IMG/VR virus record: IMGVR_UViG_2627853910_000001
Direction: 5' to 3' (one strand)
Source: a virus
Lineage: Duplodnaviria; Heunggongvirae; Uroviricota; Caudoviricetes
DNA length: 46,177 bases
The translations under genes and the position numbers were made by a program. Below the pieces are notes generated by a model. The model made no database searches. It saw only the letters and a program-made list of their open reading frames with translations, and was not told the origin of the DNA. Shown piece after piece: positions 4,483 through 43,750 of the stretch; the first letter of the stretch is position 1, and each line of letters starts with the position of its first letter.

Positions 4483-6861
4483 TTACACCTGTGCGACGTT
4501 ATACCATGTGCCATTGATGTATTTTTGTATTGGCCTGAAGATGGCTTCATCATCGCCATCTACTTCACCAATGATTCTTAATCCGGTAATTGCGTGTCCG
4601 GCTTTTTCATAACGACCACCACGCGCCATCAATTGAACAACTCGCGTACCCAGGCGAACATCTCTCACATATCTGGAATCAAAATTGCCATAGTTGCCAG
4701 GAATAACTTGCGAGCCACAAAGCCAGTTACCGTTATTGTCCATGTACGCCTGACCATCGGTGCCATTGGCTGTCCTTGAGTTATTAATCATGTAAAAACC
4801 AAACTGGTAGTTACCAAGTCCACCGACAAAAAATTTGCGTTCTGCATGGTCTTGTCTTAACAAAGCCTGCGCAGAACTTGTTGATACTGCGTTTCTACCA
4901 AAAATGACATTCTGGTTTCGCATATCAATCCATGAGGTTGAGCCACTATTAATAGCAAACCTGTTTGCATACACCCAGGCGTTAGTTGTTATATCTCCTG
5001 TAACATCCAGACCATGCCCCATAGTTATGCGGCCAGTTCTGAGATTAAGCGTAAAGGGACGTAGTGGCCCTATATCACCATTTTCCCCCTCATTCTCTCG
5101 TGTAGGGATGATATGCAGGCATTCTTCAGAACGGCGAAAAATGGCACCAAAAGATGAATTAAATATCCTCAGTGCATTGACTGTCGATATTTTTACTTCA
5201 CTGCTGAAAAGAGCTTTAACAAGAACATACAAAGCATCCCATTTAAGATTCATCAGGTCTTTTGTTGTGGTGCTTTGTTTGCTTCTCCATTTGAAATATT
5301 CATTGCCGTTGTCGCCTGTCTCAAACCACATGTATGAATCAGTGTCACCATCGGCATCATTTTTAAATCCAATCTTCGCCCAGTCAGTATTTCGAATCCA
5401 GGCAAGGATTGAGTCATTTTCAAAAGTAAGCCCACCGGACAAAGTATCGCCATTTTTTTGCACGGCGTTACCAGCCCTGTTTACCGTTTCCTGTAAACCG
5501 AGGTATTCGATAACGGCAGCAACGGTCGATTTCGCAAGAATATCCCGCCCGACTTTTGTCAGGGTTGCCAGGCTGGCGACATCATTCCCCGTAAAATACG
5601 GAAACTTGTCTGCCGCAGTAGCAAGCCCGGCCAGCGCCGTCAGGGTGGCATCTTTCGGTTGCTTACCCGCAAGCGCGTTAGTCATGGTGGTCGCAAAATT
5701 CGGGTCGTTGCCCAACGCCGCAGCCAGCTCGTTCAGCGTATTCAGTGCGTCAGGCGACGAGTCCACGAGGGCAGCGATCGCAGCCATAACATAAGCCGTG
5801 CTTGCGATCTGAGTATTGTTAGTACCTTTTGGCGCAGTTGGTGTTGTTGGCGTTCCGGTCAGCGCAGGACTGTTTAAGGGCGCTTTCTTGTTCGTTTCAT
5901 CCATTACCACCTTTACCGCTTTCGATGTCGCGGCCAGTGTTTCAGACGTGCTGTTGGTTGCACTACTGAGCTGAGTGATTCCCCTTACTGTCAGTGAAGC
6001 TACAGGCACATTTGTTATCTGCTCCCACGAATGCGTGTGATTGGACGGAGCCTTTCCGGCCGCAAGATCATACGCTGCCTTAACAGCCTTTGGTGTTGCG
6101 GCCAGCGTTTCCGAATCACTGTTAGTGGCGCTACTGAGCTGAACAATCCCTTTTCGCGCCGTGGTAGCGTCCTGTGCGGTGTATTTGCCATTAGCCAGGT
6201 CATATGCTGCCTTAACAGCCTTAGGCGTCGCAGCAAGCGTTTCAGACGAGCTATTGGTGGCGCTGCTAAGTTGAACAAAGCCTTTTGAGGTTAAAGTTGC
6301 ATCGGGATGATTACGTGATTGCTCATGTTTCACAATGGCTTGCTTAAGCCGCTTTGCTGAAACAGCAAGGGAATCATCTGTACCTGCATCAATTTCTTGT
6401 TCATTAGCAAACCTTGCCACCCCAACAACAGTTTCGGTCGCGGGAGGATTAATAAACTCAATATCACCAAATGTAATATTTTTAGTATCAAGAGTTTTAA
6501 TTGCTATATCACTTGATATTAAAGCGATAGTAGATGATGCTTTATTTATTATTGCTTGTTCTTGTGAGTATACAGCAAACAACGTACCCTTATTCGTATA
6601 CAATCCTATTGTATGGACAACATACTCATCTTTACTATCATCCTTCGCTGTTACATGAATTGTATCAGGGGAAACAACTTTGCCACCTATTGTGGTAAGT
6701 CGTTTTATTTCGTTTGTTATATTTGTTTGTGAAGTTGACGTGACATAATATCTACTACCTAAACCAACAGAAACAATCTCAACTTTATTTGTTCCTGTTT
6801 TGTTGGCATTAACCAGCTCCTGACGCCCGGCGTCAGTCATCGTAAATAATAATTTACTCAC
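4483..6861 (-). CDS. Tail fibre protein (constant N-terminal part plus invertible C-terminal part)
   Basis: 792 aa; tandem ~40-aa fibre repeats (GxVQLSSATNSxSETLAATPKAVKAAYDLA); crossover site inside the gene. Confidence 0.85.
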   Translation of the reverse strand: MSKLLFTMTDAGRQELVNANKTGTNKVEIVSVGLGSRYYVTSTSQTNITNEIKRLTTIGGKVVSPDTIHVTAKDDSKDEYVVHTIGLYTNKGTLFAVYSQEQAIINKASSTIALISSDIAIKTLDTKNITFGDIEFINPPATETVVGVARFANEQEIDAGTDDSLAVSAKRLKQAIVKHEQSRNHPDATLTSKGFVQLSSATNSSSETLAATPKAVKAAYDLANGKYTAQDATTARKGIVQLSSATNSDSETLAATPKAVKAAYDLAAGKAPSNHTHSWEQITNVPVASLTVRGITQLSSATNSTSETLAATSKAVKVVMDETNKKAPLNSPALTGTPTTPTAPKGTNNTQIASTAYVMAAIAALVDSSPDALNTLNELAAALGNDPNFATTMTNALAGKQPKDATLTALAGLATAADKFPYFTGNDVASLATLTKVGRDILAKSTVAAVIEYLGLQETVNRAGNAVQKNGDTLSGGLTFENDSILAWIRNTDWAKIGFKNDADGDTDSYMWFETGDNGNEYFKWRSKQSTTTKDLMNLKWDALYVLVKALFSSEVKISTVNALRIFNSSFGAIFRRSEECLHIIPTRENEGENGDIGPLRPFTLNLRTGRITMGHGLDVTGDITTNAWVYANRFAINSGSTSWIDMRNQNVIFGRNAVSTSSAQALLRQDHAERKFFVGGLGNYQFGFYMINNSRTANGTDGQAYMDNNGNWLCGSQVIPGNYGNFDSRYVRDVRLGTRVVQLMARGGRYEKAGHAITGLRIIGEVDGDDEAIFRPIQKYINGTWYNVAQV
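5480..5513. repeat. gix/hix-like crossover site, right boundary, inside tail-fibre gene
   Basis: TTCCTGTAAACCGAGGTATTCGATAA, about 23/26 to the Gin gix consensus as recalled. Confidence 0.7.
5905..6300. repeat. Three tandem ~120-bp repeats inside the tail-fibre gene
   Basis: Repeated DNA blocks (TTAACAGCCTTxGGxGTxGCxGCxAGCGTTTCxGA...) encoding the repeated fibre motif. Confidence 0.5.
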
Positions 6862-31725: not shown

Positions 31726-31801
31726 TGGTGGCCCCTACCGGATTTGAACCGATGACCGTGCGATTATGAGTCGCCTGCTCTAACCACTGAGCTAAGGGGC
31801 C
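31726..31801 (-). tRNA. tRNA with CAU anticodon (Ile2/lysidine-type or Met)
   Basis: 76-nt cloverleaf GGCCCCTTAGCTCAGTGGTTAGAGCAGGCGACTCATAATCGCACGGTCATCGGTTCAAATCCGGTAGGGGCCACCA; acceptor and D-arm identical to E. coli ileX-type tRNA as recalled; encoded CCA. Confidence 0.85.
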
Positions 31802-34012: not shown

Positions 34013-34315
34013 TCATGCCACAGCCCCTCTCAACGGCTTAACTTTGGCTAATAAGGTGTTAAACAACATGGAGTTAGGATTCATGCCAAATGGCAATTCC
34101 GGTTTAGCGGAGTAGTACAGGCAACCATTTATTTTCCTGGTTGTTATCTGTCCTTCGGCAACCATGCTTCTCAGTCTGCAACGCATAGAGTTCTGCGACA
34201 CACCAATGTGCTCCGCGATTACGTCCACTTTTGAACATGGGTGATCGGTCAGGAAATTAATCACATCTTGGGGGTTAATAATTTTGCGTTTCATTGTCGA
34301 GGCGTCCTTATACAT
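34013..34315 (-). CDS. Small winged-helix/HTH DNA-binding protein (candidate regulator)
   Basis: 100 aa; HTH-like segment SKVDVIAEHIGVSQNSMRCRLRSMVAEGQI. Confidence 0.4.
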   Translation of the reverse strand: MYKDASTMKRKIINPQDVINFLTDHPCSKVDVIAEHIGVSQNSMRCRLRSMVAEGQITTRKINGCLYYSAKPELPFGMNPNSMLFNTLLAKVKPLRGAVA

Positions 34316-37978: not shown

Positions 37979-38014
37979 ACCACGATATGTGGTATTAAAA
38001 CCACATATCGTGAG
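37979..38014. promoter_or_regulatory. Two adjacent 15-bp operators (ACCACGATATGTGGT and inverted copy)
   Basis: Same 15-mer in opposite orientations between divergent Cro-like and CI-like genes. Confidence 0.55.
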
Positions 38015-38081: not shown

Positions 38082-38096
38082 ACCACTAAATGTGGT
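38082..38096. promoter_or_regulatory. Third operator ACCACTAAATGTGGT adjacent to TATAAAT -10 upstream of CI-like gene
   Basis: Same ACCAC-N5-GTGGT architecture; TATAAAT at 38101-38107. Confidence 0.45.
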
Positions 38097-38133: not shown

Positions 38134-38790
38134 ATGAAAAGCAACGACGAGAACATCAAGAAAGAAATAGGTCTGCGCATTCAGACTCTACGGAAACAAT
38201 CCGGCATGACTGCCGGAGATCTCCAGCAAGTCACTGGAATAGGCTTAAGCACCTTGCAGAACTATGAGGCCGGATTAAGACAACCATCGATACCTGCCAT
38301 CAAGAAAATCGCGCACGCCCTGAAAGCATCAGCGCCTTATATCGCGTGCTTAACAGATAACCCGTTCCCACCCCAGAATACTAACGCTCCTGTTATTCCT
38401 GGGCTTGTAGCTATAAAAAATGACATAGCATCGCACGCCGGAGAAAAGCCAGTGCTGGCGATAGAACAGGAGATTCTACGAAGCAAGAACATCAACCCAT
38501 CGTCTCTGTCAGTTCTCCAGAGCAACGATGAGTTAATGTCACCAACAATATCCCCTGGCTCCCAAGTCCTGATTAATACAGACGATACAGAGATTCATGA
38601 GGGGATCTATGCCCTTGAAGACAGAAATGGCCTGGTTGTTTTGAGGCACTGTAGAGTCATACCGGGTGACAATGCTGTTATGCTGTCAACCGAAAGGGAT
38701 GCTGAAATGAACACTAAGCATCTGAATAACGAGGAATTTAAGCGTTATAAAGTTCTTGGCCGCGTAGTTAGTGTTGTCAACTGGTTATGA
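38134..38790 (+). CDS. CI/LexA-like repressor (N-terminal HTH, C-terminal S24 peptidase-like domain)
   Basis: HTH (MTAGDLQQVTGIGLSTLQNYEAG) plus C-terminal autocleavage-like domain. Confidence 0.75.
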   Translation: MKSNDENIKKEIGLRIQTLRKQSGMTAGDLQQVTGIGLSTLQNYEAGLRQPSIPAIKKIAHALKASAPYIACLTDNPFPPQNTNAPVIPGLVAIKNDIASHAGEKPVLAIEQEILRSKNINPSSLSVLQSNDELMSPTISPGSQVLINTDDTEIHEGIYALEDRNGLVVLRHCRVIPGDNAVMLSTERDAEMNTKHLNNEEFKRYKVLGRVVSVVNWL

Positions 38791-38832: not shown

Positions 38833-38847
38833 ACCACATTATGTGGT
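38833..38847. promoter_or_regulatory. Perfect operator palindrome ACCACATTATGTGGT overlapping TTGACA upstream of 38883 gene
   Basis: Palindrome ends inside the TTGACA hexamer at 38849-38854. Confidence 0.45.
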
Positions 38848-40565: not shown

Positions 40566-40750
40566 ATGTAGCCATAAAAAAGGCGGGCAACCAACCCGCC
40601 TCATTAGAGGTCAACGTCTCTTAGAAACCATCAAATTCGTCATACCGCTTTTTCATATCAACCCCGTATTGAAATCGTAACCACATCTTGTGGCTCTTAC
40701 GGTATATAAGCTACTGCAATGGTAAACAGCTATCAAATGCAGGTTGCAGT

Positions 40751-40772
40751 AAAAAAGGCCCCCGAAGGGGCC
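40751..40772 (-). terminator. Terminator GGCCCC-GAA-GGGGCC with T-run on minus strand
   Basis: GC stem; A6 on plus strand upstream gives T6 after hairpin on minus. Confidence 0.5.
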
Positions 40773-40778
40773 TAATCG

Positions 40779-40901
40779 CTACTTGCTGCTAATGTTTATC
40801 GTCACATTCAGAGCGTTATCAGTAATCTTCCAACCCTCCCCATGTGGCGTAAACAAAGCTCCAGTAACAACGATAAAAATACACATACAGTATTTTTTCA
40901 T
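40779..40901 (-). CDS. Small hydrophobic peptide (40 aa), candidate type I toxin or small membrane protein
   Basis: MKKYCMCIFIVVTGALFTPHGEGWKITDNALNVTINISSK; terminator 7 nt downstream. Confidence 0.35.
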   Translation of the reverse strand: MKKYCMCIFIVVTGALFTPHGEGWKITDNALNVTINISSK

Positions 40902-40966
40902 TGTGTGGCCCTTACAGGCCGTTTCACGGCATCTCCACCGACGAAAATGACGCGAGAGCAAGCACT

Positions 40967-40983
40967 CCGCTTGTGCTTGCGTG
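40967..40983. repeat. 17-nt direct repeat CCGCTTGTGCTTGCGTG (copy 1, in putative 5-prime UTR of small ORF)
   Basis: Identical 17-mer at 41216-41232; copy 1 sits in an 8-bp hairpin. Confidence 0.7.
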
Positions 40984-41149
40984 TACGGCAAGTGGATGAT
41001 CCTTTCCTTAAAGTCGGTGCCCGGGTGCGAATCGGCGAAAAGGCCCCAAGCCATATTACACGTCCTCGCCTTCATAATGAAGGAATAACAATTGCTTTTA
41101 TTACATGTAATTACATCCGAAGAAGTTAAAAAACTTCATTCTGCATGAA

Positions 41150-41316
41150 CTAAGGAACTAAATTTCTTTATATGAATAGTGGACTATTCACCTCAGTTGA
41201 GTAAGAATAGATACGCCGCTTGTGCTTGCGTGGTTGTTTACACAACGACGTTATGCTGAAAGGACCGCGAATCCGATCAGCACAAAAGAACCGTCCTCAA
41301 TAGGGCGGTTTTTTTG
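41150..41316 (+). ncRNA. Candidate divergent antisense sRNA carrying the 17-nt repeat, ends at terminator 41289-41316
   Basis: 17-mer at 41216-41232 on plus strand; intrinsic terminator downstream; promoter not confidently located. Confidence 0.3.
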
Positions 41317-41334
41317 TTTCTGCCTACCAATAAA

Positions 41335-41349
41335 CCCACGCTATGTGGT
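41335..41349. promoter_or_regulatory. CI-operator-like site CCCACGCTATGTGGT upstream of antirepressor operon
   Basis: 14/15 match to operator at 37979-37993. Confidence 0.4.
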
Positions 41350-41552
41350 TGTCTCTGTTAAAATCCCGCCGTATTGACATGAATGCGCCATTGGTGGACA
41401 CTTTCCGAGCCGTAGCAAAATCTACGGCCGGGATTGGCGTCCCGATAATCATCATGGCGCATACCGCGTTAGCGGTTTTTTTATGCGTAAAGCACGGCTA
41501 CACCCGAATTATGGTGGGGCGTGCGGGGGAGCCGTAAGGCTCGCCGGGTATC

Positions 41553-41840
41553 ATGATGACCGGTTACGCCAACCCTGTACGTCTCACCACCTCACTGATT
41601 GGCGTCAGCGGTGGTGATTATTCCAATATCAAAACTGGAACTATCATCATGACAAACTTACCCCATGACTATTACGTCAACCTCGTAAAGATCCTTCTCA
41701 AGAAAGCCTCATACGCCGATAAATTCCGCCTGGCTGAAATCATCGAGCGCGAAGCTATGCGCATCGCCAGCAACGATAACGCTGTTTCTGACGCAAAAAT
41801 CTCCCTCGTAACCAAAGTAGTTATGGGAGGTGCAAAATGA
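41553..41840 (+). CDS. Hypothetical protein translationally coupled to antirepressor (icd-like position)
   Basis: Stop overlaps antirepressor ATG (ATGA). Confidence 0.4.
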   Translation: MMTGYANPVRLTTSLIGVSGGDYSNIKTGTIIMTNLPHDYYVNLVKILLKKASYADKFRLAEIIEREAMRIASNDNAVSDAKISLVTKVVMGGAK

Positions 41841-43012
41841 AAACGCTTCCGACCGTTAACACCCTACAACCTATCCTGCATAACCAGCTCCCCGTTATCA
41901 CTACTGAACTACTGGCAAAGCTATACGGCACAGACGTTGATAACATCAAAAAAAATTACTCACGTAACGCAAACCGCTTTATTGAAGGAAAGCATTTTTT
42001 CAAAGTGGCTGGCGATGAGTTAAAAACTTTGCGAGTGACTTTAAGTCACTCACAAAATTTGCGGGTAGCTTTAAACTACTCACAAAATACCATCTCCCCA
42101 AAAACCCGCACCCTCATCCTCTGGACAGAACGCGGGGCTGCACGTCACGCCAAAATGCTCGAAACCGATCAGGCGTGGGATGTATTCGAACGGCTGGAAG
42201 ACTGCTATTTCAACCAGAACGCGAAAACGGCAGCGACCGTAACCGTCTCGCCAAACAATGCTCGTGAGGTCGTCGATACGCTCAACGCCAAACCGATGTT
42301 TTACATTAAGGTGTGCAATAACGAGCCACTCACAACCTCAGCCGATGTTGCCCAGGCATTCAGCACCACAAACAATTCCATCGTTATGGCCATCGATGCG
42401 TTACGCATTCCTCGCACAGCTGCGGCACGTCATTTCTTTAAAGAGCAACGACCGCTGGAAGGAAGCGACCGCGAAATAACAATCTATCGCATGACAAAAG
42501 ACGGATTTACCTTGCTCATGGAAAGTATCGACGGTCCAGGCGTGAAGGATATCAAGCTGGCCTACATTGAAGCCTTTAACGCTATCAGCAGCGTGTTAAA
42601 AACACAGTACGAGCGCGATCTGGCTAAACGACTGTACCAGGAAAAAACGATTATCCGCGCGGCAACAGAGCATAATCGGCTATTAACGGAACCGAACTAC
42701 AGGAAGGAACTAATCAAGGAGTTTGACAAGGCAACAGGGAAAACCAAAGCGGCGCTAAATCTGCCAGCAATGACTCAGGAAAATGTGATATCAGCCTTAC
42801 TTCTTGATCTACTCAGAAACGCCAGAGCACTTATCAGCTTTGACGAAAACCTGAATCCTCAACTCAAGCTACTACCACCGACAGGCAAAGTAGTCGACCA
42901 GGCTGATCACAACAGCATACTCAGCGTACTGGATGCAAACCTGCCAACCAGGACACTACAGGATCTGATAAAAACATGTGCTGATAAGCTGGCACAGAAA
43001 AGCAGACCATAA
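41837..43012 (+). CDS. Antirepressor (ORF6N/Rha-like domains)
   Basis: N-terminal ITTELLAKLYGTDVDNIKKNYSRNANRF and central PMFYIKVCNNEPLTTSADVAQAF segments typical of phage antirepressors. Confidence 0.7.
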   Translation: MKTLPTVNTLQPILHNQLPVITTELLAKLYGTDVDNIKKNYSRNANRFIEGKHFFKVAGDELKTLRVTLSHSQNLRVALNYSQNTISPKTRTLILWTERGAARHAKMLETDQAWDVFERLEDCYFNQNAKTAATVTVSPNNAREVVDTLNAKPMFYIKVCNNEPLTTSADVAQAFSTTNNSIVMAIDALRIPRTAAARHFFKEQRPLEGSDREITIYRMTKDGFTLLMESIDGPGVKDIKLAYIEAFNAISSVLKTQYERDLAKRLYQEKTIIRAATEHNRLLTEPNYRKELIKEFDKATGKTKAALNLPAMTQENVISALLLDLLRNARALISFDENLNPQLKLLPPTGKVVDQADHNSILSVLDANLPTRTLQDLIKTCADKLAQKSRP

Positions 43013-43016
43013 CTAC

Positions 43017-43050
43017 AAGGGGCTACGGCCCCTTACTCTTTTCTCTCTTA
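43017..43050 (+). terminator. Terminator after antirepressor gene
   Basis: 7-bp stem followed by T-rich tract. Confidence 0.45.
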
Positions 43051-43750
43051 TCAACGCCAGAGACTTTCTGAAAATCCTTTCGAATAGCGTCAGCATCACG
43101 CGCCAAGCCCATACTGGAATGCGTCGCCATATGACGAAAATGATCAACTGCCGGAAACAAAGAAATAATGGACCCAATAGCTTGCAGCAAACTCGCTTTT
43201 CTACGCATCATAATTCCACCATAACCGATAACCACCCTTCAGACACAACCCCCCCTCCCCCCATACAGGGTGCCCTTTACCGGAGTTCCGGCCCCTTCTC
43301 AAAAGCATCAAAAAAAGCTCGAGATCGAGTACCGGAACTCATGCCACCAGATAGCTCCACATCGTTTCCAATGCTTCGCCGCCGTGTGCGCCCTGTGGCC
43401 CACAATCATGCCATTGGTCGTCTGATATACCTTCTTCTGCTCATAGAGCACAGGCGAGTTGTCGCACTCCTGCCTTTCTCAGACTCGACTTAGTTTAGAT
43501 CGTTGTTCCTGGCTTGCGTCAGCACACTTTCCCCTTGTACGCATACCCGCGCGCCACTTCGCCCAAAAACACCGAACCCAACGAAGTGGCAAAGACAACG
43601 ACGCGAGCGTGAGTCTGAAATGGGCACCAGTAAAAAAGGGGTTGCAGGCGCAAAAAGATTTGATTATCTTTAGACGCAAGAAAGCCGCCCCAATCAAGAG
43701 GTGTCTTTTTAAATCCAGCCTACCAAGCAAGATTTAAATTTCAGACTGAA

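Follow-up and report, generated by a model that had tools for sequence, protein, structure and literature searches.

An IsrK RNA and a P1-type C4 antisense RNA precede the antirepressor gene of a phage-plasmid, in what is very probably an immI-type immunity module

Which elements occupy the leader of an antirepressor operon, and do they include a regulatory RNA of the kind known from phage P1? This question is raised by a viral sequence of 46,177 nucleotides (IMG/VR record IMGVR_UViG_2627853910_000001, Caudoviricetes), hereafter the window, in which an initial annotation, made from the sequence alone, had described an operator-like site and a structured leader of about 200 bp upstream of an antirepressor gene (ant), and had proposed that this leader encodes a regulatory RNA of the P1 c4 type. 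In phages P1 and P7, the immI region is composed of the c4 antisense RNA, icd and ant1/2, together with the a1/b1 and a2/b2 sites and the C1 operator Op51; C4 is cut from a longer precursor, with its 5' end generated by RNase P, and represses ant in trans. In P1, C1 acts on the DNA to repress the c4-icd-ant operon, the full repression of which also requires the C4 RNA (PMC8198154). In the window, the leader contains two already-catalogued small RNAs, IsrK and a P1-type C4 antisense RNA, forming an immunity switch of a well-understood kind. We consider it very probable that the whole leader constitutes a P1 immI-type immunity module assembled from Gifsy-1-type parts and carried by a phage-plasmid.

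The window comprises nearly all of a phage-plasmid of ~48 kb, with a ryfA/timP-like gene and partition genes located upstream of the module. The 1.9-kb ant region displays 99.4% identity to the plasmid unnamed3 of Escherichia coli FDAARGOS_1337, and 93-97% identity to many plasmids of 46-50 kb from E. coli, E. fergusonii and E. albertii, as well as to the Yersinia phages vB_YpM_39/41/44. Parts of the query were matched in 1197 of 5426 complete E. coli genomes, and matches to the isrK-C4 block alone came from 338 phage and 720 plasmid records, among them those of Stx phages, phiV10-like phages, and phages of Klebsiella, Hafnia and Enterobacter; in P1-type plasmids, only a short stretch was matched, which extends from the terminator tail of IsrK into the 5' portion of C4. 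Across 16 fetched loci and Gifsy-1, Rfam models placed isrK (or c4-a1b1) directly 5' of C4, and an antirepressor gene followed 3' of C4 in every annotated record. None of the matching RefSeq/GenBank records inspected carried an RNA annotation in this region, the labels used instead being 'ash family protein', 'hypothetical protein', 'ORF6N domain-containing protein' and 'Rha family transcriptional regulator'. The element is a previously unannotated example in which the P1 immI architecture is combined with Gifsy-1-type parts, a leader ORF other than Icd, and a CI-type operator.

The leader is indeed structured, with folding z-scores of -3.5 for the interval 41335-41552 (1 of 200 shuffles was equally good) and -5.7 for the wider region 41405-41670. 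When the whole window was scanned with Rfam at gathering thresholds, the check originally suggested for C4-type RNAs, both C4 and isrK were returned, which bears out the proposal of a P1 c4-type RNA. The IsrK sRNA (RF01394) was located at 41409-41482 on the plus strand, as are C4, the promoter elements, the leader ORF, ant and the repressor gene described below, with a full-length match (73.2 bits against a gathering score of 50; model positions 1-77 of 77; E = 6.9e-14). Its layout consists of hairpin 1, a hairpin 2 whose loop and 3' arm hold the site a1, an unpaired linker containing the site b1, and an intrinsic terminator; the minimum free energy (MFE) fold reproduces all three hairpins, and covariation was observed in 5 of the 7 pairs of hairpin 1. 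The terminator, with its stem at 41463-41476 and a T-run extending to 41482 (ACCGC-GTTA-GCGGT followed by T7), corresponds to the terminator-like hairpin that had been noticed at 41463-41482 from the letters alone, and was also called by a terminator scan. In a separate pass with permissive filters, the RF03163 model c4-a1b1, described as 'a1, b1 targets of C4 antisense RNA', aligned at 41396-41448 over the 5' half of isrK, below its gathering score (42.0 against 46.7 bits; E = 3.6e-9). The c4 and c4-a1b1 motifs were named by Weinberg et al. (2010; PMC2864571), and only for IsrK of Gifsy-1 are Hfq binding, a short terminated form and a longer read-through form serving as ant mRNA known (PMC4825925).

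The C4 antisense RNA (RF01695) is situated just past the IsrK terminator, at 41507-41594, where it overlaps the first 14 codons of a supposed 95-aa ORF; the match is again full length (81.0 bits against a gathering score of 45; model positions 1-87 of 87; E = 1.9e-14). A 17-bp closing stem surrounds two hairpins, and the Rfam structure leaves unpaired a 12-nt loop of hairpin 2 (41548-41559), which holds the site b', and an 8-nt internal strand (41565-41572), which holds the site a'. Folding of the single sequence recovers this structure as the MFE (z = -5.3), compensatory changes were found in 16 of the 27 helix pairs among 16 loci, and the 3' tail CCACC is conserved. A small plus-strand RNA had been predicted at about 41380-41482, a position that fits a terminated RNA, namely IsrK, but not C4, which lies mostly outside and 3' of that interval.

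Upstream of both RNAs, the operator-like site previously noticed is present at 41335-41349 as the palindrome CCCACGCTATGTGGT (CCCAC-GCTAT-GTGGT; assigned to neither strand), conforming to a family consensus ACCAC-N5-GTGGT, and is presumed to be the site of a CI-like repressor. The core CCAC-N5-GTGG occurs at 7 exact sites in the window, against 0.34 expected (0 of 100 shuffles reached this number). A gap of 174 bp between a CI-like repressor gene and its divergent neighbor holds two full copies, ACCACGATATGTGGT at 37979-37993 and ACCACTAAATGTGGT at 38082-38096, together with a half-site (38000-38014); of the further copies, those at 38834, 40681 and 1654 are intergenic and that at 6683 is inside a tail-fibre gene. 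The repressor gene (38134-38790), the 218-aa product of which presumably acts at these sites, matched Pfam HTH_3 (4.5e-11) and the PHROG families for transcriptional repressor and CI-like repressor, with a match to Peptidase_S24 falling below threshold (1.8e-3); the genes adjoining the other copies matched only families with unknown function in PHROG and Pfam. Among four relatives, the arms of the palindrome are invariant and the spacer is variable, and in relatives with a different upstream DNA, where an HTH gene is inserted, homology restarts exactly at this site. Because of its copy number, its clustering at the repressor gene and its invariant arms, these data support the reading of the palindrome as a putative CI operator, and the initial proposal of an operator at this place is credible.

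The promoter of isrK was assigned at 41374-41402, with a -35 element TTGACA (41374-41379), a 17-nt spacer, a -10 element GACACT (41397-41402) and a presumed start at ~41409. A sigma-70 consensus scan of 40600-43300 called no promoter, the isrK -10 GACACT being weak; promoter assignments were thus based on conservation of position across loci, and the -35 (TTGAC/T) and -10 elements keep their position 5' of isrK in 16 of 16 compared loci, including Gifsy-1, for which the 5' end of IsrK is known by experiment (PMC4825925). The center of the operator lies 67 bp 5' of the presumed IsrK start and does not overlap this core promoter; therefore, repressor control would need either a promoter located further upstream or another mode of action. 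One candidate, read from the sequence, is an extended -10 element TGtTAAAAT at 41356-41364, directly 3' of the operator, which may correspond to a second promoter under repressor control, with the operator covering its -35. TATAAA and TATATA, respectively, are likewise found 5-10 nt downstream of the copies at 38083 and 40681.

The distance between operator and start also speaks for a different reading, in which the palindrome is not the operator of this operon but a fortuitous hairpin, a weak terminator or the site of another protein, with a constitutive isrK promoter and an exclusively post-transcriptional control of ant. The terminator scan does report the palindrome as a weak hairpin, and in Gifsy-1 lysogens both IsrK and the RNA downstream of it, STnc1160, show high expression in every condition (PMC7067206). 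Nevertheless, a chance or unrelated site would hardly occur seven times, with several copies crowded next to the repressor gene, nor mark the exact beginning of homology of the module with arms that resist change. Moreover, the P1-type locus has a C1-operator-like sequence at the equivalent place. We therefore regard this alternative as unlikely, albeit the strongest of those considered here, and retain the CI operator as the preferred reading.

Unpaired segments of C4 are complementary both to IsrK and to the mRNA. The unpaired a' segment of C4 (ACGCCAA, 41566-41572) is the exact complement of a1 within IsrK (TTGGCGT, 41434-41440) and of a2 in the mRNA (TTGGCGT, 41599-41605). Likewise, b' in the loop of hairpin 2 (CATGATGA, 41552-41559) is the exact complement of b1 within IsrK (TCATCATG, 41449-41456), and its extended form (TCATGATGA, 41551-41559) is complementary to b2 in the mRNA (TCATCATGA, 41644-41652), which includes the start codon ATG 41649-41651. 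A search for complementarity between the leader loops and the ribosome-binding site region of an ORF starting at 41553 had been suggested; complementarity exists, but its target is the ATG at 41649 and not that site. In the MFE fold of the whole leader, b' is paired with b2. With RNAduplex, the C4 core and IsrK gave -38.9 kcal/mol against -23.5 +/- 3.7 for shuffled sequences (0 of 500 as good), and the C4 core and the a2b2 segment gave -31.4 kcal/mol against -17.4 +/- 3.5 (1 of 500). These duplex energies, which told cognate from heterologous IsrK but did not consistently distinguish the a2b2 segment of pECO-b75, are relied upon for the shuffle control only. With RNAcofold, the full C4 combined with IsrK or a2b2 gave ddG values near 0, as the loop-loop (kissing) contacts are not representable there.

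A stronger test of the mechanism than single-sequence energies is comparative covariation, which we assessed at 18 loci with 15 distinct loop/bulge combinations, among them a P1-type plasmid, Gifsy-1 and Stx phages. Six sequence types of a' were found (ACGCCAA, GTTCCAA, CTGTCAA, which is the P1 type, AGACCAA, GTGCAAA and AGATCAA), and both a1 and a2 were complementary to a' at 7 of 7 nt in all 18 loci. The b' sequence varies in nearly every lineage, and a complement of 6-9 nt is always found at the position of b2 in all loci. As spacing differs between loci and makes MAFFT columns unsuitable, a2 and b2 were evaluated by register-anchored extraction followed by permutation of cognate and non-cognate targets, and none of 10,000 permutations matched the observed complementarity for any of the four pairings. 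Within the phage-plasmid family, an alignment of 560 nt from five members is nearly invariant outside a1, b1, a', b', a2 and b2, and these six sites change in concert, yielding three specificity types, those of the window, pECO-b75 and vB_YpM_39.

One of the closest known systems is the isrK-orf45(STnc1160)-anrP-isrJ locus of the Salmonella prophage Gifsy-1, which shares with the window an isrK with terminator, then a C4, and then an antirepressor gene of the AnrP type. The C4 model falls, in our Gifsy-1 sequence (L018), exactly on STnc1160, a stable RNA 3' of IsrK that requires the isrK promoter (PMC4825925). Both elements have the a-type TTGGCGT/ACGCCAA and differ in b' specificity. In Gifsy-1, the invariant ATG that follows b2 is the start of anrP, whereas in the window a leader ORF of 63 codons begins there, as a small ORF does in P1. 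Furthermore, the window Ant has an additional Rha domain and C-terminal part, neither an isrJ match was obtained in the window with Rfam nor is a Q antiterminator gene present 5' of isrK, unlike in Gifsy-1, and the ATG equivalent to that of the Gifsy-1 gene orf45 (41511) opens only 8 codons up to TAA 41535, leaving no orf45 counterpart.

For Gifsy-1, part of the transcription from the isrK promoter continues past the terminator into an mRNA that is translationally silent, and anrP translation increases 139-fold with IsrK supplied in trans (Hershko-Shalev et al., 2016; PMC4825925). The authors of that work explain these results by a cis structural switch and by orf45 inside the C4 region, invoke no processed trans-acting C4, and term IsrK a structural homologue of SeqA (PMC4825925). 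Applied to the window, such a switch would mean that the C4 segment is never released, that the mRNA is inactive due to a1-a' pairing in cis, that IsrK opens it in trans, and that orf45 feeds ant. Native gels, compensatory mutants and 30S footprints have been published in its favor for Gifsy-1 (PMC4825925), and the same base pairs are possible in the window. The compensatory pairs G28/C162 and G31/C159 (PMC4825925, Table 1D) are two of the seven a1-a' pairs, taking IsrK nucleotide 1 as L018 position 34316 and C4 position 1 as nucleotide 103, and orf45 of Gifsy-1 starts in the 5' stem of C4. However, the a2 and b2 sites, for which a purely cis-acting switch has no need, covary with a' and b' in 18 of 18 loci; the orf45 equivalent of the window is the 8-codon frame mentioned above, with no frame kept open over the module in 16 loci; and STnc1160 builds up in Salmonella as a separate and stable RNA (PMC4825925; PMC7067206). 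For these reasons, the switch acting in cis alone appears improbable to us, somewhat more so than the non-operator reading of the palindrome, and release of C4 as a trans-acting RNA remains the preferred account. This is also the manner in which, in the work of Citron and Schuster from 1990, P1 c4 is reportedly made and used, that is, as a processed RNA acting in trans.

The reading frames of the region fit an RNA module followed by two overlapping genes. Three ORFs are found from the operator to the end of ant, namely 41343-41537 (64 aa), 41553-41840 (95 aa) and 41837-43012 (391 aa). The 64-aa frame had been doubted from the outset, and it is non-coding, because its start lies within the operator, 5' of the transcript start, and three of four close relatives have a shortened version, of 12 aa in the plasmid that is 99% identical and of 34 aa in the other two. 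The coupling of ant to an upstream 95-aa ORF, as initially described, holds with regard to the ATGA overlap (41837-41840), but not to the extent of the upstream frame, which most likely comprises 63 codons from ATG 41649 to 41840. That ATG is invariant in 16 loci, whereas in 3 of 4 relatives a TGA located 10 codons 5' of it interrupts the 32-codon extension from 41553, and, apart from the window, only its nearly identical twin keeps the frame upstream of this ATG open. The 63-aa product aligned with phrog_7886 over 63 of 63 positions (E 2e-47), and is annotated at this length in pECO-b75 and in Yersinia phage vB_YpM_39. No frame open through the RNA block is conserved in the 16 loci, the frame of the conserved ATG being closed in 13 of them.

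The 95-aa form is labeled 'ash family protein' in RefSeq, and Pfam Phage_ASH matched it at 26.1 bits against a threshold of 26, through residues 2-39 only, which are the translation of C4/a2 nucleotides; in phage yong2, the entire Ash profile coincides with isrK, C4 and a2b2. It is consequently scarcely credible that the 64-aa and/or 95-aa 'Ash family' ORFs are real genes and the RNA-family matches incidental, since, even though both ORFs exist and the profile match and RefSeq label nominally favor them, the 64-aa frame and the 95-aa extension are interrupted in relatives as described, the Ash match is made of RNA-module nucleotides, and the substitutions preserve helices and duplexes rather than codons.

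The antirepressor-like gene itself (41837-43012) matched Pfam ORF6N (2.4e-20) and Phage_pRha (3.9e-12), together with PHROG anti-repressor families, and residues 1-161 of its product, the ORF6N half, display 49% identity to AnrP of Gifsy-1 (E 6e-48). It has a strong Shine-Dalgarno (SD) sequence of its own, GGGAGG at 41826-41831, for which a candidate hairpin with CUCCCU at 41800-41805, within the leader ORF, can be drawn; considered alone, this hairpin is not significant (z = -1.0).

With the P1/P7 immI region, the window has in common the operator, the promoter, a1/b1, a C4 of one and the same Rfam family, a2/b2, a small ORF and an overlapping ant, and the P1-type locus (L008) presents the same order of parts. 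Window relatives combine one primary repressor with differing C4 specificities, as P1 and P7 do. Conversely, the individual genes are distinct. The small ORF, at the position of icd, is not Icd, with no BLASTP alignment to the P1-type protein, no match to NF033153, which does match the L008 Icd, and a different PHROG; Ant is not P1 Ant either, the best BLASTP E-value against the ORF that follows icd in L008 being 3.6. The window repressor is a lambda-CI-type HTH protein (HTH_3/S24-like) with a palindromic operator instead of C1 with Op51, and the analogy between them is functional only. Moreover, b2 covers the AUG itself in the window and lies just upstream of the annotated icd start in the P1-type locus, and the a1/b1 segment of the window ends in an intrinsic terminator and would hence be freed as the sRNA IsrK, whereas no isrK match was obtained with Rfam in the P1-type locus. 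The immunity system of phage-plasmid P4 (CI RNA, seqA, seqC) is alike in that the exposed sequence of a processed RNA pairs with copies lying on either side of it in its own transcript; unlike in the window, P4 CI acts by terminating the transcription of replication genes prematurely, with no antirepressor under its control (PMC4825925), and no family specific to P4 was matched here.

By analogy with P1/P7 and Gifsy-1, these parts suggest how the module may operate. Transcription would begin at ~41409, as judged from the homologues, and the CI-type operator upstream may govern an additional upstream promoter through binding of the repressor. Most transcripts would end at the terminator (41463-41482) as the 74-nt IsrK, and those that read through, again as in the homologues, would contain C4, the 63-codon leader ORF and ant. 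Once released by processing of the read-through transcript, C4 is predicted to pair through a' and b' with a2 and b2 of the mRNA and thereby to block translation of the leader ORF, since b2 contains its start codon. With the leader ORF untranslated, ant would probably be silent as well, because of the ATGA overlap and of an ant SD able to pair with codons of the leader ORF, and lysogeny would be maintained. Rho-dependent polarity, reportedly described in P1 by Biere and co-workers in 1992, could be a further contributor to this silencing. IsrK, in turn, would act as a decoy and thus as an activator, its a1 and b1 competing for a' and b' of C4, so that a2 and b2 are freed and ant is switched on.

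P1 c4 with a1b1 and Salmonella IsrK with STnc1160, which are usually listed apart and still constitute separate entries in a 2025 review, appear to be one device. As a broader and tentative proposal, which we hold to be possible rather than probable, IsrK would generally be an anti-antisense decoy for C4, that is, the P1 a1/b1 target mimic freed by a gained terminator, with orf45 of Gifsy-1 as a by-product of C4. If true, IsrK, P1 c4 and P4 CI/seqA would represent one mechanism, present in more than 1000 E. coli genomes, and many annotations as 'Ash family protein' (Pfam PF10554) would derive from translating this RNA module. For annotators, the region shows that ORFs of 64, 95 or more codons are called over unannotated RNAs, some of them as 'ash family protein'. 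Under the same proposal, cross-talk would be possible among co-resident prophages and phage-plasmids of one a-type, TTGGCGT being that of the present element, Gifsy-1 and Stx phages. For the phage-plasmid itself, the module would explain how the antirepressor is silenced in a CI-repressed element, and it leads to the prediction of three immI types that share an identical CI repressor but are heteroimmune to one another.

In Salmonella prophage Gifsy-1, the STnc1160/'orf45' region was identified by Rfam as a full-length C4 RNA (69 bits), located at 34131-34214 on the minus strand of the fetched locus L018. Its b2 region (ATCACCG, near 34076), one of the C4 targets on the downstream mRNA, abuts and partly overlaps the GGAGG located 5' of the anrP start codon, and the duplex formed by a1 and the unpaired C4 segment a' includes the compensatory mutants G28/C162 and G31/C159 (published in PMC4825925).

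The same type of RNA block appears to be what Pfam PF10554 ('Ash protein family') models, in translated form, from isrK through C4 to a2b2. In Hafnia phage yong2, an annotated 'Ash family protein' is hit at residues 68-161 by the complete profile (107 positions), and this match coincides with isrK (1495-1569) plus C4 (1593-1679). In the window, the match is limited to residues 2-39 of the 95-aa ORF (41553-41840), the only part also matched by several PHROG 'transcriptional regulator' profiles. The regions concerned are window 41553-41669 and, among the comparison loci, L013 1483-1764, L016 1520-1687 and L005 1618-1731; since the profile apparently represents translated RNA, the 'ash family protein' annotations that RefSeq gives there are suspect.

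The part of ant that encodes the ORF6N domain contains a 30-nt stretch duplicated in tandem (77% identity, window 42024-42083). Compared with Gifsy-1 AnrP this duplication is an insertion, and its first copy belongs to an 18-nt inverted repeat (AAACTTTGCGAGTGACTT / AAGTCACTCACAAAATTT). Several relatives carry ant in two pieces, one an ORF6N pseudogene and the other a separate Rha gene.

Directly 5' of the immunity module, the phage-plasmid seems to carry a type I toxin-antitoxin pair. The putative toxin RNA is ryfA/timP-like (40751-41048, minus strand; Rfam RF00126, full length, 135.5 bits) and contains a hydrophobic 40-codon ORF that begins at 40901 (nt +148 within the RNA); TimP of Salmonella starts at +145 (PMC7667032). 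Divergent from it, a candidate TimR-like sRNA (about 41206-41316, plus strand, with a 3' terminator at 41289-41316) is complementary to the toxin RNA, because the 17-mer CCGCTTGTGCTTGCGTG is present at both 40967 and 41218. Some relatives have an inserted HTH gene separating this pair from the immunity module.

The operator core CCAC-N5-GTGG recurs in the window at 1654-1666, 6683-6695, 38834-38846 and 40681-40693. Three of these four copies are intergenic: one is 5' of a minus-strand ORF of 337 aa, another separates the repressor gene from the ORF that follows it, and the third is 3' of ryfA, with TATATA after it on the plus strand; the remaining copy is inside the tail-fibre gene. The genes adjoining these copies are of unknown function. 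The phage-plasmid also carries a tRNA-Met gene (anticodon CAT; 31726-31801, minus strand).

The CI-like repressor (38134-38790) is 100% identical to that of pECO-b75 (L002 1267-1920), yet the leader alignment of phage-plasmid relatives revealed that a'/b' of C4 and their target sites differ between the two, and that Yersinia phage vB_YpM_39 represents a third C4 specificity type. As in P1/P7, a single primary repressor is combined with several different antisense specificities, and heteroimmunity within this phage-plasmid family is predicted from the shared repressor and the differing C4 types.
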